Source of the DNA: Amoebophrya sp. A120
Lineage: Eukaryota > Protista > Dinoflagellata
NCBI GenBank assembly: GCA_905178155.1
Contig: CAJINV010000018.1
Coordinates: forward strand, 724,609 to 788,608
DNA: 64,000 nucleotides
Reading direction: 5' to 3'
Every line of letters starts with the position of its first letter. Position 1 is the stretch's first letter. The position numbers were made by a program, and so were the translations under genes. The notes beneath the pieces were generated by a model. It saw nothing but the letters and a program-made list of their open reading frames with translations. It was not told where the DNA came from and searched no databases. Shown here in pieces: positions 1,801 through 48,700 of the stretch.

Positions 1801-3706
1801 TACACAGAGAAAGAACATGTTGACCCCAGCTGTTCTCTTTCATTTAAAGATTTTTTGGATTCAACTATCTGCCTTCGCGTGTGTTTCTTTTGGATCGTAA
1901 TGCAGCGTTCGCTCTCGTACTCGTTCTTGGGGCCAGTGATGCAAAAGCATACATAACTTTTATGACGCCTACTACGTAGCTCAGGAGACGAAACGCAGTT
2001 GTCCTCGGGGCAGTTACTTCGTGAGAATACTGCTTGCCAGTATGCGGCTCGGAAAAAGTGGCCCTGATATTATACTCATACAATAAATTGAATTTGAAGA
2101 AACAACAAGTCCAGAGCCAAACGTGCATTTGACTTTGAGGTCACATAGAAGGCAGCAAATTAGCTTGAACTTCTCTTTACACGCTGCAGAAATAACGTTT
2201 ACGTCCCAACAAAAAAAAGCTGATTCTCTGACGAGTTCGTGGCACACTGCGCTGGAGCTGCACGAGCAATCGTGCTGACGGATTTCTTTATCTTTTTTAT
2301 TTCCCCAAGAAACTACAACAGTAAGCGCGACTGGCTCTATTTTTTGTACTCCTTATTACACGCCCATCTACGTATTTCTCTTATCGCTGAAGAAAGTGTC
2401 AAATAATACCGGCGGAACACAGAGAGACAAGCAGTCGGGACCAGGCCGCAGAGGCTTCAGCCGAGGCACTTCATCTCCGGCGCACGATCACAAAAGGCGA
2501 GTACTAGCACAAACTACAGTGCGTGCGTGCGCGTGACCTACTCAGAGATTCTTACCGCTGCGCTGCAGGATAAGTGAGTAGCGCGCGCGGAAACGGAGCA
2601 GAAGCAGCTGGGCGCGCGAGGGCATGCGCGTAGCCCTGACCATCGGCGCTGCAATTATTTGACGAGGCTAGCCTTCTCCTTGCATTGATTATCTTGTACG
2701 AGCAATCAAAAATAGCCTGCTCGAGTTTCTTATTGATTCTTTTATGACAAGGACCAGCGTGCTTCATCAATTGTGAAAATTTATACTGGTTACCAGTATC
2801 TTTAATGCTTGGGAGCCGAAGCAAGTCGTGAGAACGTTACAAACCGGGCACCACTTCTACGTACCATTTTCGTTTTGCGCGTACGACGTGATCGTAGGTT
2901 TCGCGCGACATGGGCGGGGTTGTGTTTGATGTGTTACCAGATTAGGATATACGAAAATCAGTCGTGAGTGAGTAACTGTTTCTTTGACGTAAAGTCAAAA
3001 TCAATTCTATGCTTAAAGCTCTTTGGCTTTCTCTTTGGCTTTGGGGCTGGGACCACCATGTATGATATTTTTAGTTTCGATTTCATCTTGATTCTTTTTA
3101 CGTAAATTGTGCGTATGCAACTTTTTCACTTTTCGACGCATGCTCGTCACTGCAAAAAAAAAAAGAATACAGAAGCTCGGTCTAGTGTTCCTGTTCGGTC
3201 GCAAAAGGTACAGGTAGGAAAAAACTGAGTATGCTCTGCAAAAGTAGTATCGCACTCGAATATATTGCAGCCTTGCATGACAAAAATCTCTACCTGGTAG
3301 ATCAGCATTCGAAATTCCAGTTTTCTTCTTACCAATGTTGTGCTTATTTGTGATGCTACGAATTTACACGTGCTGGTACGATACTTTTGCAGTGCATACT
3401 AAGGAAAGCCCTGGTCTAGCTTACTGGCAGGCGGCGAGATGAAGATCGCCATAGTTTATCCGGAGGGACCTCCTAGATGAAGTTGAAATCATGACAAATC
3501 AGGGTGGCCGCAGCCTGTTTTAGTTTTGGCGGCTAGAGGTCATGTTGACCTCGAAAACGAGATGAAAAAATTGTCCTGATGATGAAAATGACAAATTCAA
3601 ATGAGTTATAACACACTTTTTGTTTTCTCAATGCTTTGAAAAAAATTCCCATTCCCTTCCTCTGCGTCGTGCAAAAATTCTGCGGCATGTTCATCTTCAA
3701 CGTCCT

Positions 3707-24700: not shown

Positions 24701-27700
24701 TGGAAGGTTGGAAGACTTGTCATGCAGGTTTTCCATGACGCGTGAGGTCTGTAATACATGACCCAGCATGACAGATTCTTCTCGACCTCGATCATGCCTC
24801 GTCTGCATGAGAAAGTCCCTCTCAGCTTGGTCAAAAGAGGAGAGCTTTAGGTAATCATGCAACACAGATTTTTGCACTATCGAGAATTAGCATGACAAGT
24901 TGCATTCTTCCAGACCCAGACATTTTTACAATCCATACATCGGTGGGCGGTGCCTGCGCGTCTACTCGGCGGTCGACATCTTCCAAAAATGGCCTGGTCA
25001 TATTGCCGCTTCCAAGATTTTGATTAGCTTCGCCCCCCACGGTGGAGCTACTGCTACCAGGGTGGTGCATCGCACTTCCGAAATTTGCCCCTTGATTCAG
25101 TCCCGCCAGGGTGGTGCGCGCGTTTTTATTTTCCTCCTCCAACAGGTCCTCGATGCTGGTGTACCGTTTGCGGCCTCGACCGGAAGACGTCCCTATGTGG
25201 TCGAGGGCTCCACCCAGAATCACCCCCGCTGCGCCGGCAGTTCCATGATGTCCTCCGGCGCCAGCACTGCTGGTCCCGTGGTGGCTGCCGCCACTCAGGT
25301 CCACCAGCAGTGCCTGGGTGCTGGTGTTCCCGAATTGCGAGCTCATGTAGCCCGCAACGTAGTTGCTGGAGTGCGGTGCATTGGTGTCGTCGGAGAAAAA
25401 GTCGGTAAATACCGAGTTGGAGGACTTCAGGTCGTTGTGGTTGCCCCGGTCGTAATAGACGAACTTGAGGTCTTTTTCGATGCTGGCCGGGAGATAATTG
25501 CACAACATGGTCTCCGTGAAAATGATAATGTCCAGCACCCCATTGCGGTGGTTTTGAAACTCGACCCACACATTCGTCTCGCGAGATGCTCTATCCTGCG
25601 CAAAAGTTGTCTAGTATCGCGCTTCGTACAAAGATCATGATGAACGAGCGCAGGAATATTCATGGGCAACTGAAGAAACTACTTGCACAGACCGTAGCTA
25701 ATATTCGCATTCGTCTATACAAGTACATTAATGCGCTAGCTAGAATGCCGGTTCTGGATGTAGTATGAATGATCTAGATGCTGACGCAGCATGACAAAGA
25801 CAAATGTAGAAGCTTTGACACTACAATTGCAGCACCAGTGAATGCATCGCGCTTTTTGTTTTGCTTCTTGGTGTACTAGACTGACACAAAAATTTTTCAA
25901 TCCGTATTCCATGTCATACACCGGAAACTTGATCCGGTCGTACACAATCTCGTCCTCGTTGTTCTGCCCGGATCCGCCTAGAGCAGCCTTGTTCCCCGCA
26001 CTGCCATCCATGTCGTTCAGCTGCTCCCTGGCCTGCGCCGCCCGGCGCTTTTTCCGCGAGGATTTTTTTGAACCGCCTCCACTGCCGGCGCTGCCCGCGA
26101 TCCCAGAGTTCCGCTGCGTGAAGTTCGTTGCGCCCGGAATCTGCAATGCATTGTAGAAAGAAGGCGAGTTGCGACTCGAGGCCTCCGAGGCCATAGTTCG
26201 GGAGCCCATGCTGGGCCCGCGAATCGAATTTCCCGGCGGGGCCGCCCCCTTGGTCGAGGAACTTGATATCATGTACTGAGGCTGGAGCAAGGACAAGGCC
26301 CCACCTGACCCCCGCCCCGACCCTCCCCGTTATCAAGTGCAAATATGCCTGGATATCTGGAAGCTTGTAAATGTGAGTGAGTGCTTTGTAAATGTAATGT
26401 ACAGGAGCCAAACCTAACTCAAAGCACAAAGCATCAGAAATATTTGCGCGGGTTCGTGTTTTCTGCATGACAAGCACAAGCTGCGTTTTTGCATGACAAG
26501 AAAAAGGGTTCTTTCTTGTTCTTCATCAACACGCATCACGAACTCTTCACCCTTGCATCCTACTTCCACCCGGACCCAGACATATTTGCAATGCATACCT
26601 GCCCGCCGGCACCAAAAGCGGCGTTGAAGGCCGGCTTGTAGAACGGGATGCCCTCCGGGGTGAATGCACTTCCGTAGAGGCAAAGTTTGAAGGAGAGTGT
26701 ACCCTCTTCCAGGTTTACGGCGTGCACGTCTTCCTTCTGGTTCAACTTTATCGTTCCCGAAGTCTCCTCGGCGTTGAGCCCGCGCGAAACGTTGTTCATG
26801 CCACCAGTACCAGCACGGCGGCTGCTGGCGCCCCGACCTGCGCCCATGTGTGTGCCTCCTGCTGCGAAGGCGGAAGCGCTCGGACCGCCGAACAGCGAGC
26901 TGGCGCCCAGCCCGAGCGACTGCTCCAATGGTTGGCCGGCGAGCACCATGTAGTGAATCGGAAACGGCAAGTTGGACCGCAGCTGGATCGTCGGCTGCAG
27001 AAACAGGGTCGACTGCACGACAGAGCCACTACGGTCCTGCAAGGGCAGCTGTTCGCAGTCGAGCGTGGCGTACATGTGGAACCACTCCGGTTCTTCCTGC
27101 TGTTTCATGTTTCGCCGGGCGCCGGGAACTATGCAAGAAAAAAACTATGTGAGTGTAAGTCTGTGATGCAGGAAGTGCAAAACTGCTTCACTTGTCATGC
27201 TGCACCCGCGTCATAGGCTACTTTCATACGTGTTTCCATGTACTAGCGTGCGCAAGACAGGTTTTCTCTGTAATGCAAAGCGAACTTGTGATGCTGCTCT
27301 TCCTACAAAGTAGTGAAAGTTACACCTACACAGTTTTTTTCCTGGATAGGAACGCTGTCCTCGTCACTGTCGTCGCTGCTGGTCGATATCCAAGAAAAAA
27401 AAAGCTATGGTCTCCTGTGTGAAATGCAGAGGACGCAAGACACTTTTGCAATTGCGCGTGTGATGCTGAGTACCAGAACCAATCGGAGTCTCTTAGAATT
27501 AGCATTAGGAACACGGGCGGTCCTGCTCGTCGTTACATTTCAAATGCAAGGGAAGGACGACAAGGCTCTTGATTTTTATGCAATAAGAATAAAGTTACTC
27601 ACACTATTAACACAGCTCGGTCATTTTGGTTTTCGTTTTCCTGGATAATCGAGGACGAAGAAACATTTTCCGATCCCCTTTCCCGCTGTTGAATGATGTG

Positions 27701-30700
27701 CCTGGCCCGTTTGCGCTGCGCTCGGATCTCTTTTTTCGTTGGCAAAACGCAGCTGATCAGCTCCTTCGGGAACTCGGGAGTGGTCTTCTGCCAGTGGTGG
27801 TTCGCGAACTCCTGGTATCAGAATGAAAAATCCCCCCTCCCCATATCAAAACGAAACTTCTGCTGCTGGATTTGTGTACACAAATCAGATTTGTCTTGCT
27901 GGCGAGGACTGCTTGCAGGCCCATATCAAGCCTGAGTAGCCTGGTTTTGGCCTAGCCCTAGGCACTTTGCATGATAGACGTCTACGCTGTAGGTGCAACA
28001 GCATGACAAACCGCCTGTAGAATGCGGCGGAGCATGTGGAGTCGCCTTCATGCAACACAGAGACGATTTTTGGTCAAAAATTTCCTTTTGATACCTGGGG
28101 AGGGGGATTTTCCTTTTGATACCTGGATGCGCGACACGAGGAGTCTGGGTGACCAGCTGAAGACCTTGTTGACCTCGTCGAGGAGTCTAGGATCCAGCTG
28201 GAAAAGCGCGTCCTGCACTAGTCTCTCAGAGTGAGAGGAGGATGATAAATTCGTGCGCTGATAGTGATATCGATAGTTGTACTCATCATCTTCTTGTTCT
28301 TCACCGGCAGAGTTCGTCGAGGAGCCGGACACCCGTCTCCGTGCGCTAGGGGAACCAGAAGAACCTCCTTGACCCTCTTCGCCCCCCGCAACTGCGGACT
28401 CCTTCGAGTCCCGCAAAAAATCGTCCATCGAGCTAGGCGGCTTCACGATATTTGCCTCCAAACTTCGCGTGATCAAATCGCCCAGCCGTTCGACCAGCCC
28501 CGACTTTTCCAGTAACGGCGCGAACCGCACGGTGCCTTCTCTGCACGCGTCCAGGGGTAAGGATATTTCCTCCTCTGGCTGAATCACCACGTAGTCCCGG
28601 GGGATTTGCGGACTCCTCGGGTTCTGGAAAATTTGGTGGATGGAGTTGTTGTTCGTGATCTCGCATAACAGTGGGACGGTTGCAAATCCGTTGCGGACCA
28701 AAACCGAGGATTGCAACACGCACAGCTTCCGGACCTCGGCCGACACGCCTCGACACACGAGCTCGTAGTAATCGTTCGGGTTGTATTCTGTGAAAATTTA
28801 CCATCTACTCCATCCATTTAATATTTTTTGCATGACAAAAAGGAACTCCCTACATGTTGCGCATGACAAATCGGATGGGGATAGGTCTTTTTTTGTGGAT
28901 AGGTTGCTCAATTGCAGCTGCTCGTCATAGTCGAAGAAATCATGATGCGTCTGATGCATTTGCTGGTTCATATCACCTCCCTGCTGCTGCTGGATCCCCA
29001 TCCGCTGTTCCCTGAGCGCCACCACGGATCGCTTCGCCGAGTTCGCGACGTTCCTGGGTGCGTAGACCCGGTAGCAGTGCGCGCCGGTGCGGGAAATGTT
29101 GAGCGACCGGATGATCCGGTTGCCGAACAGGTGCATGTGCACCTGCGGGGTGTGGGGCAGCGCGTCCTTGGAGCTGATCATGGCGGCGGAGGATTTGGGC
29201 TGGACTGTCAGCTCCCGCAGCCGGCGATCCTCTCCAGAAGCGATCACCACTTTGTCATACCGAGTGGAGTTCGGCGCGGGCAGAAACTCGATCTCCACCG
29301 ACCGGTTACCCTTCATGTTTTCCAGACTGTAGGGCGCGATCGGGATGCGGTCCACCGTCTTCACGACCCTCGGCTCCCAAAAAGGCGTGTCGAAGTCGTC
29401 CGGTGGGGGAAGGACAGGGATGTGCCTGCTCACGTTCTTTTTCGAGGTAACCACGGGGAAAGCAAGCGCGAGTCTGGAGTGTTTTGGCACAACGGGGTGG
29501 TAGACGAGAGATCTTGTGGTCGCTTGCTGGACGTCTTTTTGTTCCTTAGCGTTGTTTCCTCCGCCGAGCAGATTATCCACTTCCTTCTCGATTTCGTCCT
29601 GTTCACTGCTTTCCGGTGGCGTGAAGAAGGGCTGGTCCGGCGAAGGGGTGGCTGCATTATTTGCAGTGGCGCCTCCCGCAGGTGGCGCAGGCGGCTGCAA
29701 TTGCGAACCTTGTGAAGCTGTCTGCGGTGCGACTAGTTGAACAGGAGCTGCGCCGGGAGCAGCTACTCCCCCCTGTTCCGGTTTCTCGCTCAAGACCGGC
29801 GCAGGCAAAGGAGTCCTTGAAGAAGCCGCGGCCACGGTCCCTCGCTTCTGAAAGTGTAGATCCACCAAGTGCCTTCTCAAAACGAAGTTCCGCAAGTACA
29901 GTTCCATGTTCTTGGATACAAACGACCGACTCAGATCCGCGCTCTGGTAGTCAACAATCCACTCGCGGGCGTTGCTTAAGAGTACGTCCGCGAGCGTTTC
30001 CGTGATGTTCAACCCAATTTGGTCCCGCACATCCACAATGAGCTGCTCGTAGTCCGACTTGGGTTCTTCGTTCATCAGCTGATTGTAATTTTTCCCGCGG
30101 TGCATGACGTGCTGCTGTTCCACGAAGTTTTCGTCGGGTACGGGCTCGGTGTCAGACAGCATTTCCTCCTGCTCCGAGCTACTAGAGGATGAAGAACTAC
30201 TCGTGTACAGATTCGTCATGAGAAATTCCCGGGCGTCGTTTTTTCGCAAGTCCCCAAAATCCTGACTGACCGTCACGCGGACGGTCGGAATATTGAACAG
30301 CGCTGCGCTGTCGGTTCCCGACTTGCTGAAATTTCCGATAGTGTATCAAATGTAAAAGTGTCTGGGTCTGGAAGATTGCCAGGTTTGTCATGCACATTTT
30401 GGATGACTCCTGATGTCTGTGATGCATGCCCTAGCATCACAGATTTTGTGAGGGCTTCCTGATGCCTATACCGCATGACAAATGCTCTTTCCGTGTAGCA
30501 AAACTTGAACTCTCTTTGCTGCTCATGCAATAGACACAGATTTTTTTAGAATCCAGAATCAGCATGACAAGTTGGATTCTTCCAGACCCAGACATTATTT
30601 TTACAGTTGATATAGTGCTCGAGCTGTTGATCGCGGACCGTTTCCAAAACCGGTTCACGCGCTTCTATGGGTGTGTCAGGATTGAAATCGACAAAGTTGA

Positions 30701-33700
30701 AATGATTTGAATTTGTCGTGCACAAAATGCAAGGCATGAAGTGCCTCTCTTGGTGGGATGGCAAGTGAGGCAGATTGTGAGCCTATCTAGGGTTTGGGAT
30801 AGAGATGCTAAAGGAGCATGACAAAAGCAGTCCTCTTTGCCGAAACAGCATGACAAATTGGATTCGCGTACTCCGAAGTTTTGTCATGCGCCGCTTGATA
30901 AGTGGGCTTCCAACTGGTATCGGTTTTATGCATGACAAACTATTTCAACTCTGACGATTTCGATCCTGACACTCCAATAGCTTCCGGAACGTCCGGATCC
31001 CGTCCGTCGCCGAGGATCGCTTGGACATGGTGGAGCCCACAGACCGCTGCGAGGCAGAGCTTGCGGTGGACACCGTCGAAGATATGCTCGCCGTTTCCCA
31101 GTCAACGTCTGGGTTGATGTTCCCGGTAGCATCAGACGAGCTGTAATTGCTCGCATTTGCAGCAGTATTCCTACTTCTACTGGAGGAAGATGCAAAGGGA
31201 TTGAATCTACTGCTCCTTTGCTGGTACCTGGCCGCCCGTTTTTGCAGCCGTTCCTCATCCCCCGGGCCATCGGCGATGTCCGCTAACGTTTGCACCTCCT
31301 CGTAGGCTTCGGCGTTTTGGGCTGATGTGTTCGACGAAAACTTTTCCGCCGCCTTCTGCTTCTCGCCAAACAGGTTATGCAGGAAAAAATGACGCCCGCC
31401 CCCATCCATTTTTTGCATGACCAACATTGGAATTCGAATCAATTTATGCATGTTTCGCATGACAAATTGGATGGGGATGCGTTTCTTTTTGTGGATACAG
31501 GTCCAGGCCTTCACACAGCGGCTCGTAGCACACCGCCACGGGGTTGAAATATTCCGCGTAGAAGTCTACGTACAAACCTCGAGAGGTTTTGTGCACCGTC
31601 CTGGTCTTGAAAATACTCCGGTCGAAAAAGCTCATGGACTCGGACAGCGTGCGCACCCGGGTCAGATCCAAGCGGAAGAAGGGGTAGGCGACTTCCTGCC
31701 CGCAGTCGTTTAAAAGCTCCAAAGAAGCACTCTTGATCTGCAGGTCGTGGGAGCGGTAGCGGTCGATAGGTACCAACGTGGTCGGTTGCTGCTGCTGCGA
31801 TGCTGGCTGGGATTGGCTGCCTTGCTGGTTTTGCTGCTGATCCAGGTGGAGCACCTCCCCGGGACGAGAAGTTGCCGAACCAATCTGCCCACCCAACCAC
31901 TCTTCCAACTGCCACAGGCGCGACAGAGACTGCATTTGCCACTGAATGCAATGAATGATACACCGTAAATCTTCATAGCTGATCTTCAGATGCAGGTTGG
32001 TCAATTTCATGTACGTGTGTTTATGCCGAAAAAACAGATACGACTGGTGGTCCGCCCCTTCGGGAGATTGCAAGAAATCATCCACGGATGCCAAGACCGC
32101 GCGGGTCTCCAACTCCCCAGGCGGGGTGTGGAAGGACTGCGGCGCGCACTGCCGGTACATATCCACAATGTAGCCACGCTTGGTCTGCTCCTGGTTTCCA
32201 AACCAAAGGTTGAAATCTTGCAGCAACACGTTGTCGATGTTGTCTTCGCTTTTCGACGTTTCCTGCCTCCTCGCTGAGGTCGTAGTAGAAGCTCCACCTC
32301 TCATGGAGGTTTTGGAGCCGGTGCGACGAGATTGGCCACTTCCTGATGTAGTTGTGCTCGCCGTGTTTCCAGTTGTATTCTGGTTCAGCGTCCTTTGCAG
32401 TTTGATGCCCGCCCGCTCGACTGTTAACGTCATGGTCCTTTTGCGCGTCAGCTGGCCCCACAGCGCCAGATCGGACTTATCAAATGCAAAAATGTCTGGG
32501 TCTGGAAGATTGCCAGGCTTGTCATGCATATTTTGCATGGACCCTGATGGCTGTAATGCATGGCCTAGCATCACATATTTCTAGAGGGCTTCCTGATGCC
32601 TATTCTGCATGAGAAATGCCCTCTCCGTGTGGACCAAACTGGACTCCTCTTGCTGGTCATGCAATACAGATTTTTTTCGAATCCGAAGACAGCATGACAA
32701 GTTACAACCTTCCAGACCCAGACACTTTTGCACTGAATAGGACTCCAAGTGGTGCCAGAACTTCAGGAAGTTGCTGAAGTTATGAACTGCAAAAGCAACG
32801 CACTAGTTCTAGTATAAATTGCATTACAAATTTGCTCAGCATGAGAAAACGAATTTCACATGCTGATTTGCCTTGGGAACAAGATTTGTAATGCAAGACT
32901 TGCTCTTGCATCTATACGAGTACGATACTTTTGCACAGGATAGAAGTGATAGTCCACTTTCGGCAAATTTTCGTCCTGTGGGGGGATAAAACTCCGGGTG
33001 CCGAGGAGCTTGTCGAAGTACTTTAGAAACAGCTGCTGCTTCTGCGCAGCGGAAAAAGAAGCTGTGGGCGGGCCCGTGGTGTTTGACGAGCCGCTGGCTG
33101 CATAATTCTCAAACAGCTCGGTGACTGTCTTCCGGTCCGCAGTGCTCATGGTGGACACGATTTCGCTTTCTCGCGCGACCATCATAAGAACGCACTTCTG
33201 TACCAATTCGCGCATCCGCTGCACCAGAGACGCCGTCGTTTCCAGTTTATGGCGTTCTCAAACGTTACATTCTCAACTGTTACACGGATTTGTGATGCAA
33301 GAATGGCAAAAGTGAAAGGGGTCACCTTGCGGGTCTCGCATGACAGATCTGGCAAAGATTCCGAGCCTGTTTGGCTCTTCGAGAATTTGTCATGCGAAGC
33401 AGCTTGATCGTGTCGATTCTGATTGTGATTTTGCATTACAAATCATGCAACAGTTGAGAATGTAACAGTTGAGAGCGCCATACAGTTGGTCGTCGGGCTG
33501 GGTCTGGAAGTCAATCTGAATCCGGTCCGCGTGCACCACGAGAAAGTTCGCCTGCTCTGCAGCAAACACCGTCGGAAACACCACCGAGGGGTCGCGCAGT
33601 TTGACGGACACCTTCACCTTGCCACCACGCACGGTCTTCCGGATTCGCCGCTCCACGTTCCCTATCAAATGTAAAAATGTCTGGGTCTGGAAGAATGCGC

Positions 33701-36700
33701 GATTTGTCATGCACCTTTTCCATGACCCATGAGGTCTGGATCGCAGGACCTAGCATGACAGATTCTGTGCGATCTTTCTCATGCCTATCCTGCATGAGAA
33801 ACTGCCCCCGACTTGGTCAAAACTGGACGACTTTTGCTAATCATGCAACACAGATTTCTGCATGCTTCAGATTTAGCATGACAAGTTGCATTCTTCCAGA
33901 CCCAGACATTTTTGCACTTGATATTCCCGTCTTTCGAAAAGGAACCTCCGCTGGTGGGGGCAGCTGCCTGTGGCACGGCTGATATTGTTGGCCCGGACGA
34001 CCCACGGTTCGCGCCAGCCTTTAGATAATGACTTCGGCTCCTCTGTTCTTGCAACTTTTTCGCCACTAGATCCTGCTCGTCTTCTTCGTCCTCTGATTGC
34101 GTTTATGAGAATGCACAACTTCTACAACTCCCCCTCCGCGTCCGCCCCGGCGTCAATTATACTACTAGAGCACGAACAGAAACTGCAACCGCCGGCACCT
34201 GTGGAGACAGCGCATGACAAGTTCAAGTTCTTGTGGCGCCGAATGTAGTACTGTTTCATCGGCTCCCGGAATTTCTCATGCAAGTTCTGCCATAGGGCAC
34301 CATGATTCGGATATTCATATTTGGGATCTTCATCTTGCATGACAAACGACAAAAAGGGGGTGCGGGAGTTGAACAAGTGGTGCACTTTCATAGCGTTCCC
34401 GAGGACGGACGGTCAAATTCGTCATCTGGGTCATCCTGCTGTTGACCAAGTGCGGTTATTCCGCCAGCTGCGTTATTTCTAGCACTATTTGTTGAATGTG
34501 AATTATCTGGTGCCATAAACAGGTCGTAGTCCCTTTTGAGAAAGTCCCGCGTCTCCTCTATCCAGGAAAAAACACCCACTCCCATCCAATTTGTCATGCA
34601 AAACATGCATAAATTCCTTTTTTTGTCATGCAAAAAATAGATGGGGATGGGTGTTTTTTCCTGGATATCCTCCTCGATGGGGCGGTGCACCCAGCTGTTC
34701 ACGTTGGTCCCCCCACCGTAGATGTCTTCGCCGTTCCTTTCCAAAATCCGCCGGCTGTAGTGCCACGAGCGCTCGTGGAACTTTTTCTGGAAGTCGTTCC
34801 CATCAAAGTCCCAATCGTACTCCGCGTCCTGGTCCTCAAACTCCCAGTCTTTGCGGGCTTTGAACTTGTAGGGCGAGTACTTTATCCGCCTCGCGTTCGT
34901 CGTGTACTGCAACTGCAGGTTGCGCCGTTTCTCCTGCGGACTGGAGGCCCCAGAGTCTACTTCAAACGGCGTCGCAGAACTGCTGGATGCACTCGTTTCC
35001 CGAGAGGACGCGACCGAGGAAGCTTTAGAAGCGGTTGTCGAAGAGGACTGCTCTCCCTTATTTGTCGTCGTGCCACCTGAAACTACCGACGCCGTCTCCA
35101 GTATAGAAGTACTAGTTCCTGCCTCTAGCATATCGTACGAAAAAAGTGTCTCACTGTAAGGATTTCATTTTGCAAGTTTTGCAATTGCATCACAGGTTTG
35201 CTCTACATCACAAAGAAAATTTGCCATGCGAGATTCCTAAGGGAAAACACAGCTAAAAATCTAGTGTCTTGCATGTGAAGCAAGACAAACACTTCTCAGA
35301 TACAGTTTCTGCATTACAAGCTTACAGTGAAATAACAGTTTTTTCTCACGATACAGCAGATCCACCGGCGGTGGCAAATCCTCCTCGTCTTCATCGGTGA
35401 AGCCTGGCTTCGAAAGCGACACGTCGGTCACAGTCTGGTGTGATGTCTTCTCACTGTCAGAACCATCGTCGTCTTCCCCTAGTGGGGCTGCCGACAGATC
35501 GCCGAAGGATCCGAGGTTCGTCGGCGACAAGCCACGAGGCTTCTTTGTCTTCTTTTTAGAAGCGGATTTACTCGCACCTCCTCCTTGTTGCGCGGTGGTG
35601 GTTGCACCTCCAGCCGTGGTACCACCACCGGCGCCTGCTGTTGCAGCCCCAGCGCTAGTACAACCTGCGGCACTATTTATCCCACCAGCGGCTATCCCTC
35701 CGTCCCCACCGCTATTGACCCCCAAATAGGCGACATTCTCGTCCGGCCAGAAGAATTTGTACAGCAAGTACAGCGGCACCGCGTTCGGGATCACCCGCGG
35801 CTCGCCGATCAGCACATCCATCTCGATTGTGGAGTCGCGGAGGTGCGAAATCGGCAAATGCTCTTCCAGAAATTCTTCCGATAACAGCTCGGCCCGGGGA
35901 AGGCCGACCGGAAACCGATAGAACTGGTCATCGTCTCCTGTGTCTGCTAAATTCGCAGTGGAGATCGCCGGCGGTGGAGTTTTATTTCCCGCAGTTCCCG
36001 CTCTGGGCGGCGGAGAAAAGACCAGTTGCTGCGGCTGCAGTACAGGGCCCGTTGTTCTACTTGGGTCGCGTTGCTCGTAGGAGCTTGAAGAAGATGCAGC
36101 CGGCGGGGCACAACTGGCCGTGCCTGTGCCTATCACAGCAGATGATCCAGGCTGCCTCTTGATGTCGTTGTCATCTCCGAATACATCGCCATTGGTCGAC
36201 GTGGCAGTTACATCCGGACTGAACATGAGCGACCCGGGGGAATACCCTTGGGGGTAGTTCCGGCGTCTTTTGATCTGGTGGGTGGCGTATTCCAAATCGT
36301 TCAGTGCAAGCAACCTCGTGTAGAAGAAACCGAAGCGAATTGGGTCGTCTTGGATGGTTTCTGTGCTGTCGGGTTGTGGTGCTTCTGCTTCTGCTGCGTC
36401 GTTGGCATTTATTCGCCCCTCTTCCACCTCATCGGTCGCGCCTGTCTGATTGCGGTTGATCATTCCCGCACCTGAGCTGTCTTGTTTCATATTGATCGCC
36501 CCACTCCCAGTTCCTGCATTGTCATGTTGACTATGATCTTGAAACAACAGCAGCCCCCCGAACGGCGCTCCGAGAACTGGCAGGTGCTGCATTTTCGGCT
36601 CCCAGAAATAGATTTGGAATTTGCACAGCGACCCGTTGTACTTCACCAGAGACATCTGCAACTTTCTCATGGTCAAGCAAACTTCTGTCGGCGTCGTTAG

Positions 36701-39700
36701 CAGTGCATTTTTGTCATGATCATCCTCGCGGGGATGGTCTTTCTTGTTCGCGGCACCTCCACCTGAAGACGCTCCTCGTCGTGCTGTCCCTTGCGCTTGC
36801 TGTGCAGCAGCAGAACCAGCTGTCCTCATCTGCGGCAGATTCTGCTGAATCCATTCGTCAAACACGGTCGCGCGCCCGCAATCTGCGTCTTGCGGATTCT
36901 GCTCGAAGTCTTCCACCGTGCTACCGTCCAGTCGCACGCGCAGATTCACGGAGTTCAAGTTCAACAGCAACTCGGTGTGCCTCCTGTACGCAACTCGCTC
37001 AAACACATCCTGAACGTCGCGCAAATACCGGTTTTCCTTGACCGCGACGTCGTCGTCCTGACCTGCTAAATTGTCGAAAAAAACCCGCTTCAAAAAGTTC
37101 CACTCGCGAAAATTCAGCAAGATCGTGACGGCGGATAAATTCACGCGAATTTTGTACGACCAGGGGAAGTACTTCCACTTCAGCGTTTTCGACTGGTGTT
37201 GCCGCTCCAGTGGGCTCAGCATCCAACTCGGCGAGGAGTCCATCGCGGTTGTTCCGCTAGACGTGAAATAATCATGGAGAAACTGGAGTCGCTCGTAACT
37301 CTCAATACCCCGAACGAACTCGACGCTGAGCTCGATATGCAATACAAATTTCCTGCACGACTACACGTACAAAATGCATCACAAATGTCACCATCAACTT
37401 GAAGCATGCCACTTGTGATGCTGGATAGAATTGAAGCAAAATCTTGTCATGCAGAAACCGTATTTGTACTTGTACATCATCATGTACAGGAAATTTCCTG
37501 TGGATACTCGACCGGGGAATCGAACAGCGGATGGCTGTCTGAATTCAGATTTGACTCAGGAGTATTTCCTATGGAAGCGTCAGGTTTGAAATCGTCAAAG
37601 TTGAAATAATTTGTAATGCATAAAATGCATGACCCGAGGCACGTGTGTTGCAGAGCAGGCAAGTGAGGCCGATTGTAAGCCTGTTTGGGCTTCCAGCTCG
37701 AGCTGCTAAAGTAGCATGAGAAAATCGCTCTTCTTTGCCTAAACAGCATGACAAAGTGGATTTAGGGACCACCGAAATTTGTCTTGCGCCACTTGGAAAC
37801 TGGGTTCAGAATTGGCATCCATTTTATGCATGGCAAATTATTTCAACATTGTCGATTTCAACTCTGACACATCCATATTTCCGCTGAGTGAAGTAGAGCT
37901 GCTTGACGTGACGCCAGCCTTGTTAAAATTTCGATTTCCGTTCGTCACCAATCTCCGGAGCTGGATCCCCTTCCCCTCAATCAGAATTCTGTCGTGCCAT
38001 ATAACCTGCTCAGCTGTTAATCTCAAGCGTTACAATAGAATCTGGAATTTGTGTTGCAAGAAGTGCATTATCTAGCCAACTCAAATAGGATTGCGCATGA
38101 CAAGTTCTGGAGTCCCAATCCGCACTGCAATCTGGCGAAATTTGTATTGCACAAAGTGGAATGCTGTCCGAGGCTGTCATGCTCATCATGCAATACAAAA
38201 CCCAGATTCTGTTGTAAAGTTTGAGATTGTAACGTTTGAGCAGGTCATATGCCACCCGTAGTGATTCAGTCTCTTTCTCCGTTGCACCGTCGCAACCGAT
38301 TGCGCGGTGGCGTTCTGCGGATTCATGAAAATTTCGTGGCGCGATATCCAGGAAAAAACACCCATCCACATCGAGTCTCAATTTTTCATACAAAACACGT
38401 ATAAGAAGTCCTGTGTTTGTCGTGCAAAAAATGGATCATGGGGATGGGTTTTTTTTCTGTGGATACGCGAGGCAAGTTTTCCGTAGTTGCTGTCCAGATG
38501 AGGCCTGTCTGGATCATCGCTCGCCGTATAGGTGGTTGAGGGTCCACCGGCTTCGAACGTGTTCTCCTCAAACCCCGCACGATACACATGGTCGGGGTTG
38601 TAGGTGACGATCATCAAAGGGGAAGAACAATTATCCAGTGGATCTGCATTTTTAGTTCCCGTGGTCGCGGCGCTGGCTGCACTTCTGCCGACCTGCACCT
38701 GTTCCACATGATCGCCTAACAAATCCTCCTCCTCGTCTTCGCTGTCATTCGCTTGGCCTTTCGCGATCTCCCAATCCCACTTGTGGTTTGCGGAAGTACT
38801 GGAGGTGGCGAAACTTGCTGACGTTCCTCCGCCTGCGATGTTAGTACCAGAGGCAGTTGTGGCACTCGAGGACGTCGACGCCACGGCCCAGGGCTTTTCC
38901 GTGAACGTGTTCCGTACCGCATCATACTCAAATGTGTTGTTTGCCTTGCACAGCTATCAACAGTAAATTTACCGCACACGTACAAATGCGGCCTCTGCAT
39001 GACAAAACTTGGCTTCGATCCTAGTTTAGCATGACAATTTTTACACCCAGATTGGCCGTGAAATTTCTATTGCATCTTGTACATGTTGTACGGGAAATTT
39101 GTATTGCATAACAGCCTGCTCGCGTCCTCGATGTAGCAAGCCTTGTTCGTGACCTTCAGCGACTCTTCGGTGAAAAGCTCGACCAGGTCCCCCTGACAGG
39201 TCGTGGTCGCTGGGAAATAGATCGACGGTTTCTCGATCGTGATGTCAAGCTCGTAGCTCCGGGGAAAATGCTCCTGCATCGCTTTTTCGACGTGCGGCGG
39301 TTGCTTGTGTCGCGGCGAAGTGCCCATTGGCCCACCGAGAATCCGCCGGGGGGACAACTCCTGCAGGTTGTCGTTGAAAAGATTTTTATTCCCGTTGTGA
39401 ACGAGTAAAGCTTCCGGGAGGATCTGCTGGCGCTGCTGTCCTTGCGCACCTGCTGCAGCTTGCCCCCCCGAAACTACGGATGAATTCTCGTCGAAAGCAG
39501 CAACAACACTTTGCACGCTTTGCCGAAAGCCCCCACTGCTGCCACTGCTGGCCTGCGAAGAACGTCTCCGTTCCTCGCGCTCCATCGCATCTAGGAAATC
39601 GTCGTCCTCATCGTCTACTTGGTAGCTTTGTCTTGACAGATGTTCTTGTGGAGCTGTTTTGTTTTTCCAAATACTAGCGCTGGTTCCATCGTCGTCGTCT

Positions 39701-42700
39701 TCCGGCGTCGAAACGACCCTGCTTGCCGATCTCACAGCGCCACCATCAACCGCCCCTGCTTGCCCTCCTGCTCCAACTGATGATGCCTTTGACAGCGACG
39801 TTCCTGCTTTCGGACTGCTCGTCCCTCCAAGAACCCCGGGACCATGCTTTGGCGTGGCAACGCGGCTCACGCCGATGGGAGCTACTACCCGTGGCTCCGG
39901 CCCAGCGGTTATCGCGGGGATAAATGCGTTGAGAATCCACCGCCAGCACCGCATGAACTTCTCTTTCATAAAGTACAGCTCGGGGGAGTCGAAGTGCAGT
40001 TTCAAGTAATACGCCAGATCCAACGGAAAGTCGTCAAATTGCATCTGGTCCTTGACGTTCAGCGTTTTGACGTAAACCGAGAAAAATTTGGTCTTATCTC
40101 GTTCTTCACCGGATTTGTTTTCATTTTCATCGCCGCTATCTTTATTTTTCTGCTTGTTCTTTATCCCGAGTATAATCGGTTTGAACTGGTCGTTGCTCAG
40201 GTCTTGAATGCAGAAATTCCCAAACTTTGCGTCGAAGACCGTCCGCTCCTCGTACAAATTCAGGTCGAACGAGGAATTTTCGCAACTCGCGTCTATCAAA
40301 GTCAAAAAAGCCCCCACCCCACATCGGAAATGGAAGATGCGCGAGCTTGTGACTCTGTATTTGAGTACACAAGTCGACTCGTATTGCTAGAAGGCCAAGA
40401 GACGAAGCTGCGGCCTAAATTGCAGGTAATCTGTCATGCTGTTTCCCACTTCCAGCTGCCTTCTGTAATCCTGGAGCTGCAAGGCTTTCCCACGCTAGAC
40501 AGCACTACAGTCCGCATCTTTTGCCTTCTAGCATGACAAAGCTGATTTGTGACCACAAATCTGCATCACAGATTTCCGTGTTGATATTGGAAGGGGGCAT
40601 TTTTCATTGTAATAGCGTCCGCAAAGTAGTGGCAGATGTTCACCCCGGACGGGGAGGAGGAGGATTTGATCGTCTCCAGCCACCTCAATTGCAACGCTTT
40701 ACAGCGAAACTGGATCTTGTACTTGAAGGGCCACGCGGCGTTGCCCACGGTGGCGGTAGAGTTTACCGTGCTGGCTTTGGATAGCATCGCGGTCTTATTG
40801 AACAATGTCGAGGCGGATGTCGCGTGGACATTCTGCGGACTCTGCAGTGGAACGGAGGTTGTTCTACAATTCTTGTGTGCCCCGCCGGACGCAGCGACTC
40901 CTACACCGGGATAAATTGGGCTGGGCGTGTTAAAACTTTGCATTTTCAGCGGCTGCGGAACCTGCAGGGTCGTGCTAGCTGTCCCCGGCGCAGCTCGTCC
41001 CCCGGACGAGAAAACATTATTTCCTGGGCCAGTACAACTACCTGGCATAGATTTGATATTCGTATTCTGCTGGCGCGCCGCCGACCCGGAATGCGCGCTT
41101 CCCCAATCGCTCGATTGATGCCGCCCTGCATTTGGCTCCGGGGTTGTCAGCATCGCGGCTCCGGTGGTTCCGACGATATTTTTGCCCGGATTTGGGCTCG
41201 GCACGGCCGTCGAAGTGGCAGAACCGGGTGGTCCTGCACCACAGTATGGAAGAGTCAGGTTTGAAATCGACACAGTTGAAATAATTCGTGATGCACAAAA
41301 TGGATGCCAGTTGTAACCCAGCTTCCAAGTGGCGCATGACAAATTTGGGTAGAGTGAACCGATGAAATCCAATTTGTCATGCTAGTTGGGTAAGGAAGAC
41401 GCCTTTTGTGTTTGTCATGCTACTGCAGCAGCTCAGTCGCTACCCCTCGACAGGCTTACAATCTGCCTCACTTGCCTACTCTGCAAGACAGGCACTCTGT
41501 GAGCTGCATTTTATGCATGACAAATCACTTCAACTTTGTCGATTTCAATCCTGACACTGCCATACACCTGCGTTCTGCAGTATCGTCTCCTGCTCCTCCT
41601 CTTTCTGCCGGAGGATATGGCGTTCTCAAATGTTACATTCTCAACTGTTACATGATTTGTCATGCAAAAACACTATCGCTCTGCACACGATCAAGCCTTC
41701 TCCGCATGACAACTTCTCGACGCGCTAGATACCATTATAATCTGCTCCAAACGTGTAATGCAAAAGGGCCAATCTTTTCCCTTTCACTTTTGCCATTCTT
41801 GCATGACAAATTTCATGTAACAGTTGAGAATGTAACGTTTGAGAACGCCATAGAGGAGCTCCAATCTCTCGAAAATCGGTTCCACCGGCGGGATGTCTTT
41901 TAAAAAGCACAGAAAATAAGTCACGATCAGCGGTTCGAAATTTAGTTTCAGAGATTTCAAATCGATATCCACCTTCCACATGGCTCCGTGGCAAAATTCG
42001 TACATTTGCTCCAGTTTCGGCGCCCGTATGGGACTCTCAACTGTTACATTCTCAACTGTTACATGAATTTGTAATGCAAGAACAGCGAAAGTGAAAGGCA
42101 GGATCTTCCAAATTTTGCATTACAGATTTGACACAGACTCAGATGCTGTTTAGCCCTTCGAGAATTTGTCATGCTCAGCCGCTTGACCGTGTGGCTGTTT
42201 ATGGTATTTTTGCATGACAAATTCATGTAACAGTTGAAAATGTAACGTTTGAGAACGCCATAGCCCGCTCGTGCACCGTGTTGATGCCAATACGGAGGAA
42301 GTTCTGCTCCTCATCTTCCGGCTCAACACGCAGGAGATCCACTTTCTTGTTTGTAGTTCCAAGATTATCTGTGACCACAATCTCTCGATCTTGGATATGG
42401 CGTTCTCAAACGTTACATTCTCAATTGTTACATGGGTTTGTCATGCAAAATCAACATCAACATCCACAGTTTGAAGCGACTTCGCATGACAAATTCCCGG
42501 AGGGCTAAACAGCATTTAAATCTGTGCGTAATTTGTAATGCTAGAGCCGCAATTGTCCCCCTTTGAATTTTGCTATTCTTGCATTACAAATTCATGTAAC
42601 AGTTGAGAATGTAACAATTGAGAGTCCCATATTGGACCTCTAGCGCGTTTGGCCGTGTAATCGCCGCCTTTTCTAGCCCAACGTCGTATCAACTGTAATA

Positions 42701-45700
42701 AAAATGTCTGGGTCTGGAAACTTGTGATGCTGGGTGGCGTATCATGATGAGGCCACAGCTGCTGGCTCAGCGTGACAAGTTTCTGAGCTCCTAGGTCTTG
42801 CCTATTCTGCATGACAAGCTGCGCTTCTGCATCACAGAAAAGCGGAGCTCTTGGGTAACGTGCATGACAGATTTAAGAGTCTTCATGCCAGACAAGCATG
42901 ACAAACATGAATTCTTCCAGACCCAGACATTTTTACAGTTGATACGTCGATGGAAGTGACCACCGGGCGAGATTTGATCTTCAGCTGGGTCCGCCGCGTC
43001 GTCAGCTCCAGGTAGTCTTCTACAGTCGGCGGCACAATCGTCCCACCTTCGAAGCCGGGGGCCATCGAGCCTGCAATTGCGCTGGACGAAGGACCCGCCC
43101 CGGAGCTATTTTCCATCGAGTTGCTGGCCACAGTAGAAGATGAAAAACCAGCTCTATCTTCGTGCCGCTCCACAACGGGACTGAGAATGTCTCTTCCCGG
43201 CGTCAGCGCGTCGAATAACTGCAAGCACAACTCCCGGACAGCAACATCGAGGAGGAATGATTCTCGTGTGAACAGATTGTCCAGGACGTATTTGTCGTCT
43301 TGCGTCATGGAAATGGGCACAATCGCCCCGTGCGCCGCCCCGGTTTTCTGGTACGCGCCAAAGGTCGTGAACGCCAAGCGTAGTGATTCGATGACCGTGT
43401 CATAGCACTGCCGATCCAGCATCAGCTCCAGTTTCGGCAAATCGCCAGAAATGTGGGTTAGCGTCTGCCTATTCACCTCATTTGGCGGGACGATGTCGAG
43501 CAGGCAGAGGTCGAGGTTCAACCCTAGGGAAAAATCGCGGATCACCTGTTTGATAGTGGAATTCTTTTTCTTGATATTACCCTGCTCTGACATGGAGGTT
43601 ACATTATGTCGCATCCGGAGGAATTCCGGGATCTGCGAGCCTGATTGCAGGCAAGCCGCGCGGACGTTTTGAAGCGTCAGCGCATATCTCTCTGCGGAGA
43701 GGAGCACGTCATTGAAGTCTTTCAGCATCGCAATCGACCGGCGCTCGGCCTTGGAGAAAGAGGAAGACGCTGCATTTATTTTTCCACTTCTCGGCGAGGG
43801 GGCAGCTGCGCCTTCTCCTCCTGCGCTCGGCGATGAAGCAGCTGAGGCGGTGGGATGATCGGGCTTATTTTTCGCATCATGATCTTGTTCTGCTTTATTT
43901 GCCATATGTCCTGCAAGAACTTCGGTTTCAGCTTTCTCCAGCACTTCCGACGCATCCTGCACCAATTTTGTGATGCTCCCAACAGACCGCACTTGCAGGT
44001 AGCCCAAGTGTAAAGCCAGCGCGGGGGCGTCCGCGCGGTAGAAGAACCGGGTGGGTAAGACCAACGTCGGGGCATCGATTTGCACCACGAGTTCCACCGC
44101 GGATTCCGCAACCCGCCGAATCCGCGAGCGCCACCCGGGTCGTGGCTCTTGTTGGGCGGGGGAACCTGTCGTGGTTCCAGTTGCGGCATTTTGCGCTTGT
44201 GTTGGTCCTCCTTCTTGCCGATGTTGGTCTCCAGGCGCGCTTGCACTTCCTCCAACATTAGGACCACTTTGAAGACCACCTCCATTTGTAGTAGAAGTCC
44301 CTTGCTGGTGGGCCACTACCTCACCGCCCGCGTAGTCGAAGGGGTCATCCACGTCTTCAGCTTCTACTCCAGATGGCTCTTCGTCGTTCGCAGAAGCCGA
44401 CGCTCCACCCGTGGTTCCAGCCACACTGCTCGCTGGCGCTCGGAAAAAATCGCCGATCTGCATCAAGTATCAAATGTAAAAATGTCTGGGTCTGGAAGAA
44501 TGCAACTTGTCGTGCTGATCTTGGATTCTAAAAAAATTTGTATTGCATGAGCAGCAAAGAGAGAGTCCAAGTTTTGCTACACGAAAAGAGCATTTGTCAT
44601 GCGGTATAGGCATCAGAGAGCCCTCACAAAATCTGTGATGCTAGGGCATGCATCACAGACATCAGGAGTCATGCAGAATGTGCAGGACAAACCTGGCAAT
44701 CTTCCAGATCCAGACATTTTTACATTTGATATCAAGATCCGGCGCTGGTAATCGATCACCAAGTTCTCACCCTCGATTTCTACCCGGGGAAGCGCCCCCT
44801 CTTGGGACGACGAGGACCCTAAAGCTCGTCCATGTTGAAAAGTACTTTCCGAGCTTCTATCCTGTGCAAAAGTATCGTACTCGTACTAATCGCAGATATG
44901 CATGACATCTACCTGAAATTGAAATAGCATGACAAATTGAATTTTTTTTCTTGGGAAAACTTGTAATGCATTCTATACTAGTACGATACTTTTACTTTTG
45001 CAATGCATAGCTTCCAGCGTACGACAACCCGTTGGAAAGAAATTCGATTTTCAGGAGCGCGTTTATGGCGTTCTCAACTGTTACATCCTCAACTGTTACA
45101 TGGATTTGTCATGCAAGAACGGCAACAGTAAAAGAGGGGACCTAAAGCGTCTTGCATGACAGATTTGGCACGGATTCTCAGCCTGTTGGGCTCTTCGGGA
45201 ATTTGTCATGCGAAGCAGCTTCATCATCTCGACTCTGATTGCCATTTTGCATGAGAAATCATGTAACAGTTGAGAATGTAACATTTGAGAACGTCATAGC
45301 GTTTTCCAGCTGTTTCTTCAGCAACACCGGGCGCTCTTCTTCCGGGATGAAATTCACGCGCTGACTTATCCTGTGCAAAAGTATCGCACTCGTATTCTAA
45401 TCATGCATTACAAATCTTTTTCTTAAGGTAAATCCGCACTACAAATTTTAGCTCTTATTCTCATGCTGAGGAAATTTGTCATGCATTTATACGAGTACGA
45501 TACTTTTGCAACTCATATGACTGTTGTGATTCTGAAACAAGTCATCCTCATCCGCGGCAACCGACTCAGCTTCCTGAAAAGATTCCATATCCTCAGACTC
45601 GGTACCGTGGACCGATGACTGATCCTGGGTGGCGGATGATGCAGCTGCCTGACCGCCCGGAGGTGGGGGCGGTGGGGGAGGTGGTGGTGGCGGGCTTCCA

Positions 45701-48700
45701 CTACTTCCAGCCTTGCTAATTGTAGTACCAGCGCCCGCGGTCGCTGTAGCTGTAGTTCCACCATCGCCTCCTCTGCTGGAATTGCCGACAGAAGTCGTCT
45801 CCAGCGACGCGGCATAATTGTGGTCCGCCGACGTTGTAGAGGACAAGTGATCGGAAGTTGTACCGCTACCATGTCCTCCTCCTCCCTTGTGAGATGAAAC
45901 TACAAGATCGGTCGGTTTTCTCTGCCGCAAGCCCGAAAACGACGGCAAGATGGAGTCCCGTCGGGACCTAAAATTATAGTCCTCGTCATCGATTACGTTG
46001 AAGCTGTTTATAGAGTCGTAGTTCAACCTAATCGAGTCCGCCCTCTCCCCGTAGTCGCCACGGTAAATCAGATCCAGGGCCGGCGTCGGATTCAATGCGT
46101 CTTTCGACTCCCCGGCGACGTGAATCGTGCCCAGGTATCCAAGAAAAAAAGACTGTAGCCGTTCTTGGAGGATTAGCATGACAAATATCTCTCGCGTGAC
46201 AGCAAAAACCTGTCATGCGCAGATGGCACGTGAAAACGCCCTTGAATGGACTTTACAATGCAGGCACAGCATGACAGGCGCAATCACTTTGCATGTTGCT
46301 GCGCATCACAACTTTACACTAACAACGCTTCTTTCTTGGATACCAGCTCCACGATCACGACTGTGCCCAACTGGATGCCGCTCTCCTGCAAAATTTTCCG
46401 TGCGTTGATCCCCGCGCCCTTGGCCTTCCACTCGGCAATGCTGGTCTCGACTTTCGCGGCCTGTTCCGGGGTCAGCTGGGATTGCTGGAGGAGGTACTCA
46501 GTTTCATCCGCTTCGAAGACCGTGTTCGCGAAGGAAGGTTTTGACGATTTCATTTTCATCGACGGTAGTGGGCCTTGAATCTGCAGCAGGTGCTGTTTCA
46601 GTTTCGGGCTGGAGGTTGGGGAGAGGGCGGCCGCGCCGGCACTAGTAGTGAGAGATAAAGTTCCTGAACTATGATCTTTATCAGATTGTGCAAAAGAAAA
46701 AGTCTTCTTCATTTTCGCCTCCAGAAACCGTCTTGCTGCGCCCTCACTGGTACCGTTATTGCAGTACTGCACGCGCAAGTCTTCGACCTTCCCCGCGAAC
46801 CGATATGGCAAGGAAAAATCCCCCTTCCCCACATCGAGACGAAATCTCTGATGCTGGACTTGCGTACACAGATCAGCACTGTCTTGCAGTAGAGGACTGC
46901 GGGCCCATATCGCGCCAATGTAGAGAGGTTTTGGCCTAGGCACGTAGCACGAGGAACGCCTATGCTGTTGGACCAACAGCATTACAAACCGCCTGCATAA
47001 TGGGGCGGAGCCTATGCCATTGCTTTCTTGCAAGACAGACACGATTTGTGGTCACAAATCAGCATCACAAATTCTCTGCGGCGTGCCTTTTAGATATGGG
47101 GAGGGGAGAGTTTTCCTTACGATAACCGACTGCCGTTTTTCTGCAACAGATCCAGCTCCACGCCGAGTAACTCGATGTCTACTTCCACCTGATTGCGCCT
47201 TTGCAGCTCCGCCTCGGTCGGAGGCTGTGTGAGATTTTCTGTCAGTTCCTGTACGTTTTCGGTCAGCTGCTCCAACTCCAGCTCTGCTTGGTCCTTATTT
47301 TCAGCAGGGATGGTCGCCGCGCTGGAAGGAGGAGCTCCTGCAGCTCTAGTCGTGGAGGAGGCCTGAGTTCCTACACCTTCCTTGTCGCTCTGCTTTGGCG
47401 TACTACTACTATCACCTTCGTTTGGATTTGCGGTTGAAATAGAAGTTGGACCACCGTCTTCTCGTTTTGTTGCATTTGACGTTCCATCAGCATCTTTCTG
47501 CTCGTCTTCCGTCCCACCACCGCCCCCAAATCGGCCGAAAAACCGCGACTTCAGCCAGTTCTTCACGCCCTGGGTGCGGGAAACCGGTTGCGGCGTCGTT
47601 TTCGCCTTTTGTAAGAGGTACTCTTCCATCCATTGCTTCAGGGATTGAAAGTTCCAAACCTCAACTTCTAGCTGCTGCATCTGCTCCAGATCCGCCCCTT
47701 CCAGCTCCGGTTTATTGTCTCCGCCGCCGGCTTGGTTCAGCAAAACGTCGCGCTTCGCCTGTAGCGCGAAAAACAACGCTTTCTGCCCCTCTTCTACCTT
47801 TTGCATTTGCTGCGCGAACTTCATGGCGAAAGTGTAGTTTCTCTTTGGAACCGCCGAAGTCCTCCCAGCACCGCGCGACAGGCCTCGGATGTGCAAGGCA
47901 CAAAGCATCGCCCACTGCCACCGTGCCTTCGCCAGCTTCGACTTGTTCACGCGGGCCAGGGAAGCTGAAGCAGCTGCAGCGGCATTTGTACTTGATGTTT
48001 GTGTTTCGTCTGCATTTAATATTTTTTCCCCTCCAACATCATTATCGCTCAGCACTTTTTTCTCGAACGGCCTGACCATTACTTCGCGCAATGGTAGGAA
48101 CACCTGGACCTTCCGCAAGTACTCGGCTTCAAAGAGAAAATGCCGGCTGATCACGGAGGCGACTTCGCGGTAGTCTTTCAAGACCTGCTCATCCAGTTTC
48201 GCCGCGATGTGCTTCAGCCGCCCTTTCACGTAGTAGCTCGCGTCCGAAGTGTTGATCGAGTGTTCGAGCAGTAGAATAAACGAGATCGGCGTGAGCACGT
48301 GCTGCAACTTCTGTTGGTTGTTCGCAATTTCGCTATCCAGCTGCTCCATCTTCACGGACCGATTCTGAAACTTCTGCATCAGCAGTTCTCTAGGGGACAG
48401 TTTAGGAACTGAATTGGTTTGCTGACTCGCCCCCTCAGCTCCACGGCGGGGGCCAACATCCGATGTACTACTAGCTCCTGCGTCCACCTTGGCCTTGTCA
48501 GCTGCGGCCGCCGCGAGTGCTTTTTCCTGGGCCGCCTTCTGTTCTTTGTGCACTAGAACGAGTTCCTGTTGCAGCTTCAGCTTTTCCTCTTTCAACTTTT
48601 TCAACTTCGCAAACGCATCCGTTTCCTTCTTTGACCGCAGGCACAGCAGTTGAAACCCGTTCAACTCAGCCTTCTTGTGCACGTGCATCGCCTCGCCCTG

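Follow-up and report, generated by a model that had tools for sequence, protein, structure and literature searches.

Introners in a VPS13 gene of Amoebophrya sp. A120 are removed in either orientation, possibly in a single asymmetric register

Introduction

More than 60% of the introns of the dinoflagellate Amoebophrya are non-canonical, and their mode of removal has stood unexplained since 2021 (PMC7789003; this and all other papers are cited for the portions accessible to us), largely because direct repeats hide the intron boundaries. The introners of Amoebophrya A120 are described in that work as elements of ∼240 nt with an inverted repeat of TAT, 7 nt and AAA, and with direct repeats of 3-5 nt. 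In Polarella glacialis and Aureococcus, several classes of introner-like elements are spliced either way, some with an orientation bias (bioRxiv 2020.10.14.339549). Here we analyze a stretch of 64,000 nt from Amoebophrya sp. A120 (contig CAJINV010000018.1 of assembly GCA_905178155.1, positions 724,609 to 788,608; hereafter the window), in which a minus-strand VPS13 gene (3707..50650) contains ∼65 introns of the form TAT…ATA together with at least two GT-AG introns. A preliminary description of the window had noted related introns in opposite orientations and had proposed that their recognition is non-polar. We find that both orientations are removed together with one copy of the target duplication, and our data suggest that the symmetric ends are read with polar spacing. 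These introns are a real feature of a known class and follow what is plausibly a new rule.

Results

The VPS13 gene was delineated by joining open reading frames (ORFs), from the orthologs P0001 and P0002 and from a spliced contig; its start codon probably lies at 50650, and the link near 25.6-25.9 kb is likewise a probable assignment. Removal of each element plus 5 nt joins the coding sequence across 34 elements into a minus-strand ORF of 5,475 aa (25739-50222). At offsets of 0, 1, 3, 4, 6 and 7 nt the longest ORF does not exceed 777 aa, and at offsets of 2 and 8 nt the frame is kept and the ORF is split. Removal of the element alone, without the 5 nt, is ruled out by a longest ORF of at most 777 aa. 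Two copies of family A (letters follow the preliminary description), at 30344..30612 (TAGTG target duplication, 274-nt intron) and 44468..44731 (TCAAG duplication, 269-nt intron), would each bring stops in all three frames if retained. Their removal is thus supported by the reading frame, which, rather than a transcript junction, also defines the extent of both introns.

A search with an 80-aa exon query found two homologues among 117 candidates, one in Amoebophrya sp. A25 (73% identity over 80 aa) and the other P0001 (78%), and both align across the element junctions. The host gene was identified as VPS13 because P0001 matches VPS13C (E 5.7e-11) and VPS13A; it also matches ATG2/VPS13_C clusters. 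The exon between 42687 and 44468, used as a query, gave no homologue, Pfam recognized no families in 25 single ORFs or in P0001 and P0002, and Rfam gave no matches.

The two family A copies are 92% identical when one is inverted and 68% when it is not (91% and 62% for the interiors only), as the preliminary description had stated, and the other two inverted pairs it named hold as well. In family D, the copy at 37570..37877 in VPS13 and that at 61699..61992 in another minus-strand ORF are 89% identical flipped and 65% unflipped; in family G, the copy at 8376..8654, inside the same VPS13 gene, and that at 53734..54012, in a minus-strand ORF outside it, are 81% identical flipped and 62% unflipped. 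Family D is inverted within VPS13 too: the copy at 41245..41564 is opposite to those at 12782, 30666, 37570 and 49340. All copies of the three named pairs start with TAT and end with ATA.

Across the window, 52 TAT…ATA pairs combine a perfect 5-bp flanking repeat with complementarity at 12 or more of the 20 terminal positions, against 0-1 in each of ten shuffles. The curated set comprises 73 elements: 81 candidates, from which 11 were removed by eye and to which three others were added. One of the 11, at 5282, is a real element that was left out before the ORF-joining test. The 73 elements form 10 multi-copy families and 14 singletons, and 9 of the 10 families are present in both orientations. 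A codon model placed the host gene of 62 elements on the minus strand and of none on the plus strand, leaving 11 uncalled; 34 of the 62 lie within the model's own training ORF. Some further features of the elements were observed. The tips come in a few variants (TATCAAATG, TATGCATTG, TATGGATTG and TATCCTGTG), which different families share and which often do not match from one end of a copy to the other. A subterminal motif recurs across families in the window and in related loci, as TTGTCATGC towards the left end and as GCATGACAA towards the right, and likely represents transposase-binding sites. The element pairs 61498/62375 and 59508/60963 are local duplications that include the flanks, not independent insertions; the element at 3230-3398 lies downstream of the VPS13 stop codon, in the 3' UTR or intergenic sequence; and two more TAT-started minus-strand introns, at 50456 and 59320, were missed by the scan and are probably degenerate.

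Removal of the elements was followed in contigs from runs X1-X3, which come from a single sample that we assumed, by guess, to be RNA, over the stretch 3500-15200. In each run one contig joins the exons without mismatches. The joined contig lacks two minus-strand GT-AG introns (4445..4852, GTACAA…CAG; 6030..6386, GTACTA…CAG) and 22 non-GT-AG introns. Twelve of the 22 skips are listed joints, one is an abutting pair and seven were derived from piece ends with record-length arithmetic (31 and 596 nt); of the last two, one is given by a piece end and the other by a loose end that spans a 6,630-nt element. All measurable skips equal the element plus 5 nt, and TAT and ATA stand at the expected offsets in 22/22, including several introns defined by the contig and not by the scan. 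For the family G copy at 8376..8654, the skip is 284 nt (279+5).

Both orientations are removed. This is seen directly for two copies of an A-like subfamily that are inverted relative to each other, at 8063..8317 and 9588..9840. Within family A, the copy at 7349..7603 is oriented as 44468 and spliced with a skip of 260 nt, and the copies opposite to it at 11002..11263, 11301..11568 and 13217 are spliced as well. Those at 11002 (contig piece end at 10996 with a fitting 31-nt record gap) and 11301 are oriented as 30344. Neither orientation is consistently unspliced, which supports the orientation independence proposed in the preliminary description. Bin depth at 7410-7800 and 11320-11710 equals exon-only coverage, although contigs drop rare forms. 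In run X4 the elements are retained, with contigs running into them and an even exon depth of ∼45. The raw RNA runs X8 and X9 have only partial reads on elements, and X10 has no reads on the stretch; none of the listed RNA sources covers 35400-45000. Reads of X8 at 33841-33924 contain a family A end with other flanks, which points to a family A copy at a different locus whose transcript is left unspliced or which sits outside coding sequence.

Long inserts are removed too. The 693-nt element at 5282..5974 is skipped as 698 nt; nested in it is a near-perfect palindrome (5466-5839, 154-nt arms, 95%), another kind of foldback element. The 6,630-nt element at 14947..21576 has the ends of a 110-120-nt family around an insert, and the loose end of the contig at 14946 resumes at 21582-21611. 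The insert has a strand-skewed composition. An element of 2,940 nt with similar ends lies inside a gene of a related locus (L064, 7264-10203); neither of these two longest elements contains a long ORF. Neither a transposase nor an autonomous partner with the same ends was found in 129 related loci and the window, where the longest elements were not scanned against Pfam.

The position of the cut within the direct repeat can be read where the two target copies differ. Let k be how many bases of the upstream target copy remain in the exon. The allowed values are 2-4 at 6788..7105, 4-5 at 10246..10674, 2-5 at 11927..12259 (one end from record-length arithmetic) and 1-4 at 13676..14092, four old elements with 6, 9, 8 and 11 of 20 terminal positions complementary, respectively. 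They are 4-5 at 7710..7996, at least 4 at 11301..11568, 3-5 at 6447 and 2-5 at 9231. The only value fitting all eight informative junctions is k=4. The intron would thus be N-TAT…ATA-NNNN, with one target copy inside, split into 1 nt ahead of UAU and 4 nt behind AUA. Because this register is asymmetric at the eight junctions, we infer that symmetric ends are read with polar spacing. The preliminary description was right that the TAT/ATA ends are symmetric; these are the ends of the element, however, and the intron, 5 nt longer, does not itself run from UAU to AUA. Non-polar recognition is not supported by the junctions.

Termini and target sequences were compared in a larger sample. A pattern search returned at least 130 loci, of which 129 were analyzed; the 80 listed all belong to one related assembly. 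The 129 loci contain 392 elements, 380 after removal of duplicates, with strands called from ORF and codon models rather than RNA. Both orientations are common, with ratios of 46:29, 27:11, 15:18, 13:14, 12:8, 5:3, 5:4, 2:3 and 0:2 among strand-called elements. Two A-type groups are skewed (46:29, p 0.06; 27:11, p 0.01; uncorrected for nine tests), and orientation may not be fully neutral. Relative to the transcript, family A and its subfamily are skewed ∼2:1 in these loci, in the same direction as in the window, and other families are balanced.

With k=4, 63 of the 64 terminal dinucleotide combinations occur among 336 introns, a count that takes all 73 window elements, including the 11 uncalled, as minus-strand. 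GT/GC-AG termini are possible in any register in 21/336, and six introns have GT-AG at register 4. These counts, and the lack of enrichment of the branch consensus, support the part of the preliminary description that doubts a conventional donor/branch/acceptor arrangement. Hidden GT-AG termini arising through target-site choice were ruled out by the same 21/336 and by the absence of target bias: the target duplication matches flank composition at all five positions (p 0.14-0.74, n=243). In these 243 elements TAT is found at 238 5' ends and 241 3' ends (partly by selection), A occupies repeat positions 11-13 in 83-93%, and in position counts the 5' end resembles the reverse complement of the 3' end. 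The branch motif of major introns is YTRAY, and U12 introns have the donor RTATCC and the branch site CCTTAAC. U12 introns were ruled out: RTATCC occurs in 44/336 and CCTTAAC in 2/336, and minor snRNAs are reported absent from Amoebophrya (PMC7789003).

The preliminary description had named the terminal stem or symmetric motifs as the likely signal. Folding mostly predicts end-to-end stems for young copies, with a tip probability of ∼0.8-1.0 in 9 of 11 folded. The four old spliced introns keep TAT/ATA intact with only 6-11 of 20 terminal positions complementary: 6/6 terminal bases are kept, and just 3-8 of 17 further positions are complementary. Their predicted UAU/AUA pairing probability is below 0.1, and the scanned subterminal motifs are absent from them. 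Among 365 elements, repeat positions 4-9 show no within-copy covariation (|z| ≤1.7), and just 60% and 42% of copies have a match at positions 4 and 7, no different from shuffles. This favours a short motif with fixed spacers over a long stem, and of the two proposed signals the symmetric motif gains and the long stem loses ground. End pairing is possibly a helper.

Discussion

The elements are likely non-autonomous DNA transposons. A cut-and-paste transposase would insert them without detectable target preference, and the loss of the element plus 5 nt restores the original exon sequence. Since TAT and ATA are reverse complements, insertion in either orientation would give UAU at intron positions +2 to +4 and AUA at -7 to -5. 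The machinery would ignore the terminal dinucleotides and measure from UAU and AUA, reading UAU as donor positions +2 to +4 and cutting 4 nt past AUA, the A of which may act as a putative branch nucleotide. The long inverted repeat and the internal repeats would serve mainly for transposition and may help to bring the ends together. In Amoebophrya 83 of 89 spliceosomal proteins were found, but neither U1 nor snRNP27 (Farhat 2021, PMC7789003), and donors with U at +4 are linked to loss of SNRNP27K (PMC10581693). At register 4 the base at +2 is U; each of the two verified canonical donors starts with GTAC, and in a crude scan of 153 coding ends GTAT ranked first among GT 4-mers (5.1-fold). On balance, we lean slightly towards removal of the TAT…ATA inserts, with one target copy and at fixed offsets, by a U2-type spliceosome lacking U1.

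Several observations weigh against this reading. The motif YTRAY is not enriched (142/336 vs 136 in shuffles) and has its A at -7 in only 100/336, and position +5 is C in 194 and G in 117. Free choice at +1, -1 and -2 (63/64 combinations) is hard to square with the chemistry of the second spliceosomal step. In the donor scan, AT-rich non-coding sequence and overlooked introners act as confounders. The register comes from eight junctions in one gene and one sample's contigs, with the upper bound of k set by two old introns only, so that registers could vary. Where target copies differ in related loci, AT-drift follows the prediction at positions 1-4 (14 vs 8) and is opposite to it at position 5 (2 vs 4). 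Repeat positions 10, 14, 17-19 and 24-26 do covary in the 365 elements, which may reflect subfamily structure or selection on the stem, and the ends of old copies still pair to some extent (shuffle p 0.01-0.10; 0.04-0.10 for each of the four old spliced introns).

The unconstrained terminal bases and the missing branch consensus would suit a separate machine, either a specialized cut-and-join activity or a divergent additional spliceosome, that recognizes paired UAU/AUA with 1-nt and 4-nt spacers and has converged with Euglena. The same logic of mirror triplets, fixed unequal spacers and free termini, with GT-AG introns alongside, underlies the code of Euglena, 5'-N3CDG…CH'GN5-6 (PMC12501133), and the nonconventional introns of Euglena leave as circles, not lariats (PMC11282704). 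However, Euglena needs downstream pairing (PMC12501133), and the old copies here have weak stems; the first exon base has no clear purine preference (187/336), no such enzyme has been identified, and U at +2 would be a coincidence. We consider a separate machine rather unlikely.

A long terminal hairpin as the signal, with a cut that floats within the direct repeats, fits the predicted pairing of young copies and the hairpins drawn by Farhat 2021, where splice sites are described as variable relative to them (PMC7789003). It is quite improbable given that the eight junctions fit one asymmetric register, that the tips of old spliced copies hardly pair, that repeat positions 4 and 7 match no better than in shuffles, and that a 6.6-kb copy is spliced. 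Elimination of the elements from DNA rather than RNA, or artefactual joining of the contigs, could be suspected since X1-X3 are one sample only guessed to be RNA and the raw RNA run X10 has no reads there. This is scarcely credible: two GT-AG introns are equally absent from these contigs, in X4, at an even exon depth, contigs run into the elements, and orthologs align across the junctions.

A bolder reading is that Amoebophrya has a second splice code free of terminal dinucleotides, N-UAU…AUA-NNNN, borrowed from the two ends of a DDE transposon with TA..TA termini. It would turn an insert at any target, in either orientation and of a size up to at least 6.6 kb into a perfect intron, and its reader would be a distance-measuring U1-less spliceosome or an enzyme not yet described, in convergence with the code of Euglena. 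To this formulation we give somewhat less than an even chance. A fixed register, if true, would reduce the apparent chaos of splice dinucleotides to one rule that can be tested genome-wide in existing RNA-seq. It would also account for the harmlessness of these transposons in exons and for their ability to reach tens of thousands of copies, and would point to a spliceosome or other enzyme indifferent to intron termini.

Comparison with known systems

The elements have the traits of miniature inverted-repeat, cut-and-paste transposons: terminal inverted repeats, a duplication of constant length, no coding capacity and high copy number. Summed contig depth reaches 10^3-10^5 in elements, compared with ∼50 in exons. 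They share TA..TA termini and terminal inverted repeats with the IS3EU/GingerRoot DDE transposons, in which the duplication is usually 6 bp (PMC10045372); here a perfect direct repeat measures 5 bp in 360 of 459 elements, in a scan that favoured this length, and 6 bp in none, and no transposase was found. Kinship with these transposons is a lead only. For A120, an introner family is reported whose homology is integrase-like and whose ends are not of the Ginger type (PMC12130899); it fits an IS3EU/GingerRoot-like mobiliser, without proving one.

As in Fritillaria borealis, the introns are transposon-derived and non-GT-AG, but in Fritillaria, whose introns are handled by a modified U2 spliceosome, certain termini are still preferred (AG-AC, AG-AT) and U1 is conserved (PMC11282704; bioRxiv 2025.08.15.670264), unlike in Amoebophrya. 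The introns described here do not have the canonical U2 termini GT/GC…AG. The elements of Polarella and Aureococcus are likewise DNA-transposon-derived introns in either orientation; they depend on particular targets and on GT/GC/GA and AG that they bring along or recruit (bioRxiv 2020.10.14.339549), neither of which those of Amoebophrya need. With Euglena they have in common triplets in mirror arrangement, set at constant but unequal distances from unconstrained termini, direct repeats along which the boundary can slide, and an unexplained machinery. They differ in having N1-TAT…ATA-N4 in place of CDG/CHG with 3- and 5-6-nt spacers, a purine exon start and required pairing (PMC12501133), and in belonging to an unrelated lineage. 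The nonconventional introns of Euglena, whose N3CDG…CHG N5-6 signature is not found here, are therefore analogous and not the same class.

By their sequence, the elements are the published Amoebophrya A120-type introners, with which they share TAT, 7 nt and an A run, 5-bp repeats, many non-GT-AG families and canonical introns alongside (PMC7789003). In the openly available literature we found neither orientation independence nor a fixed register in print for Amoebophrya. Farhat 2021 (PMC7789003) describes the boundaries as variable or unknown and, in its accessible text, does not take up orientation; both orientations are seen to be removed here, and the junctions point to a single register.

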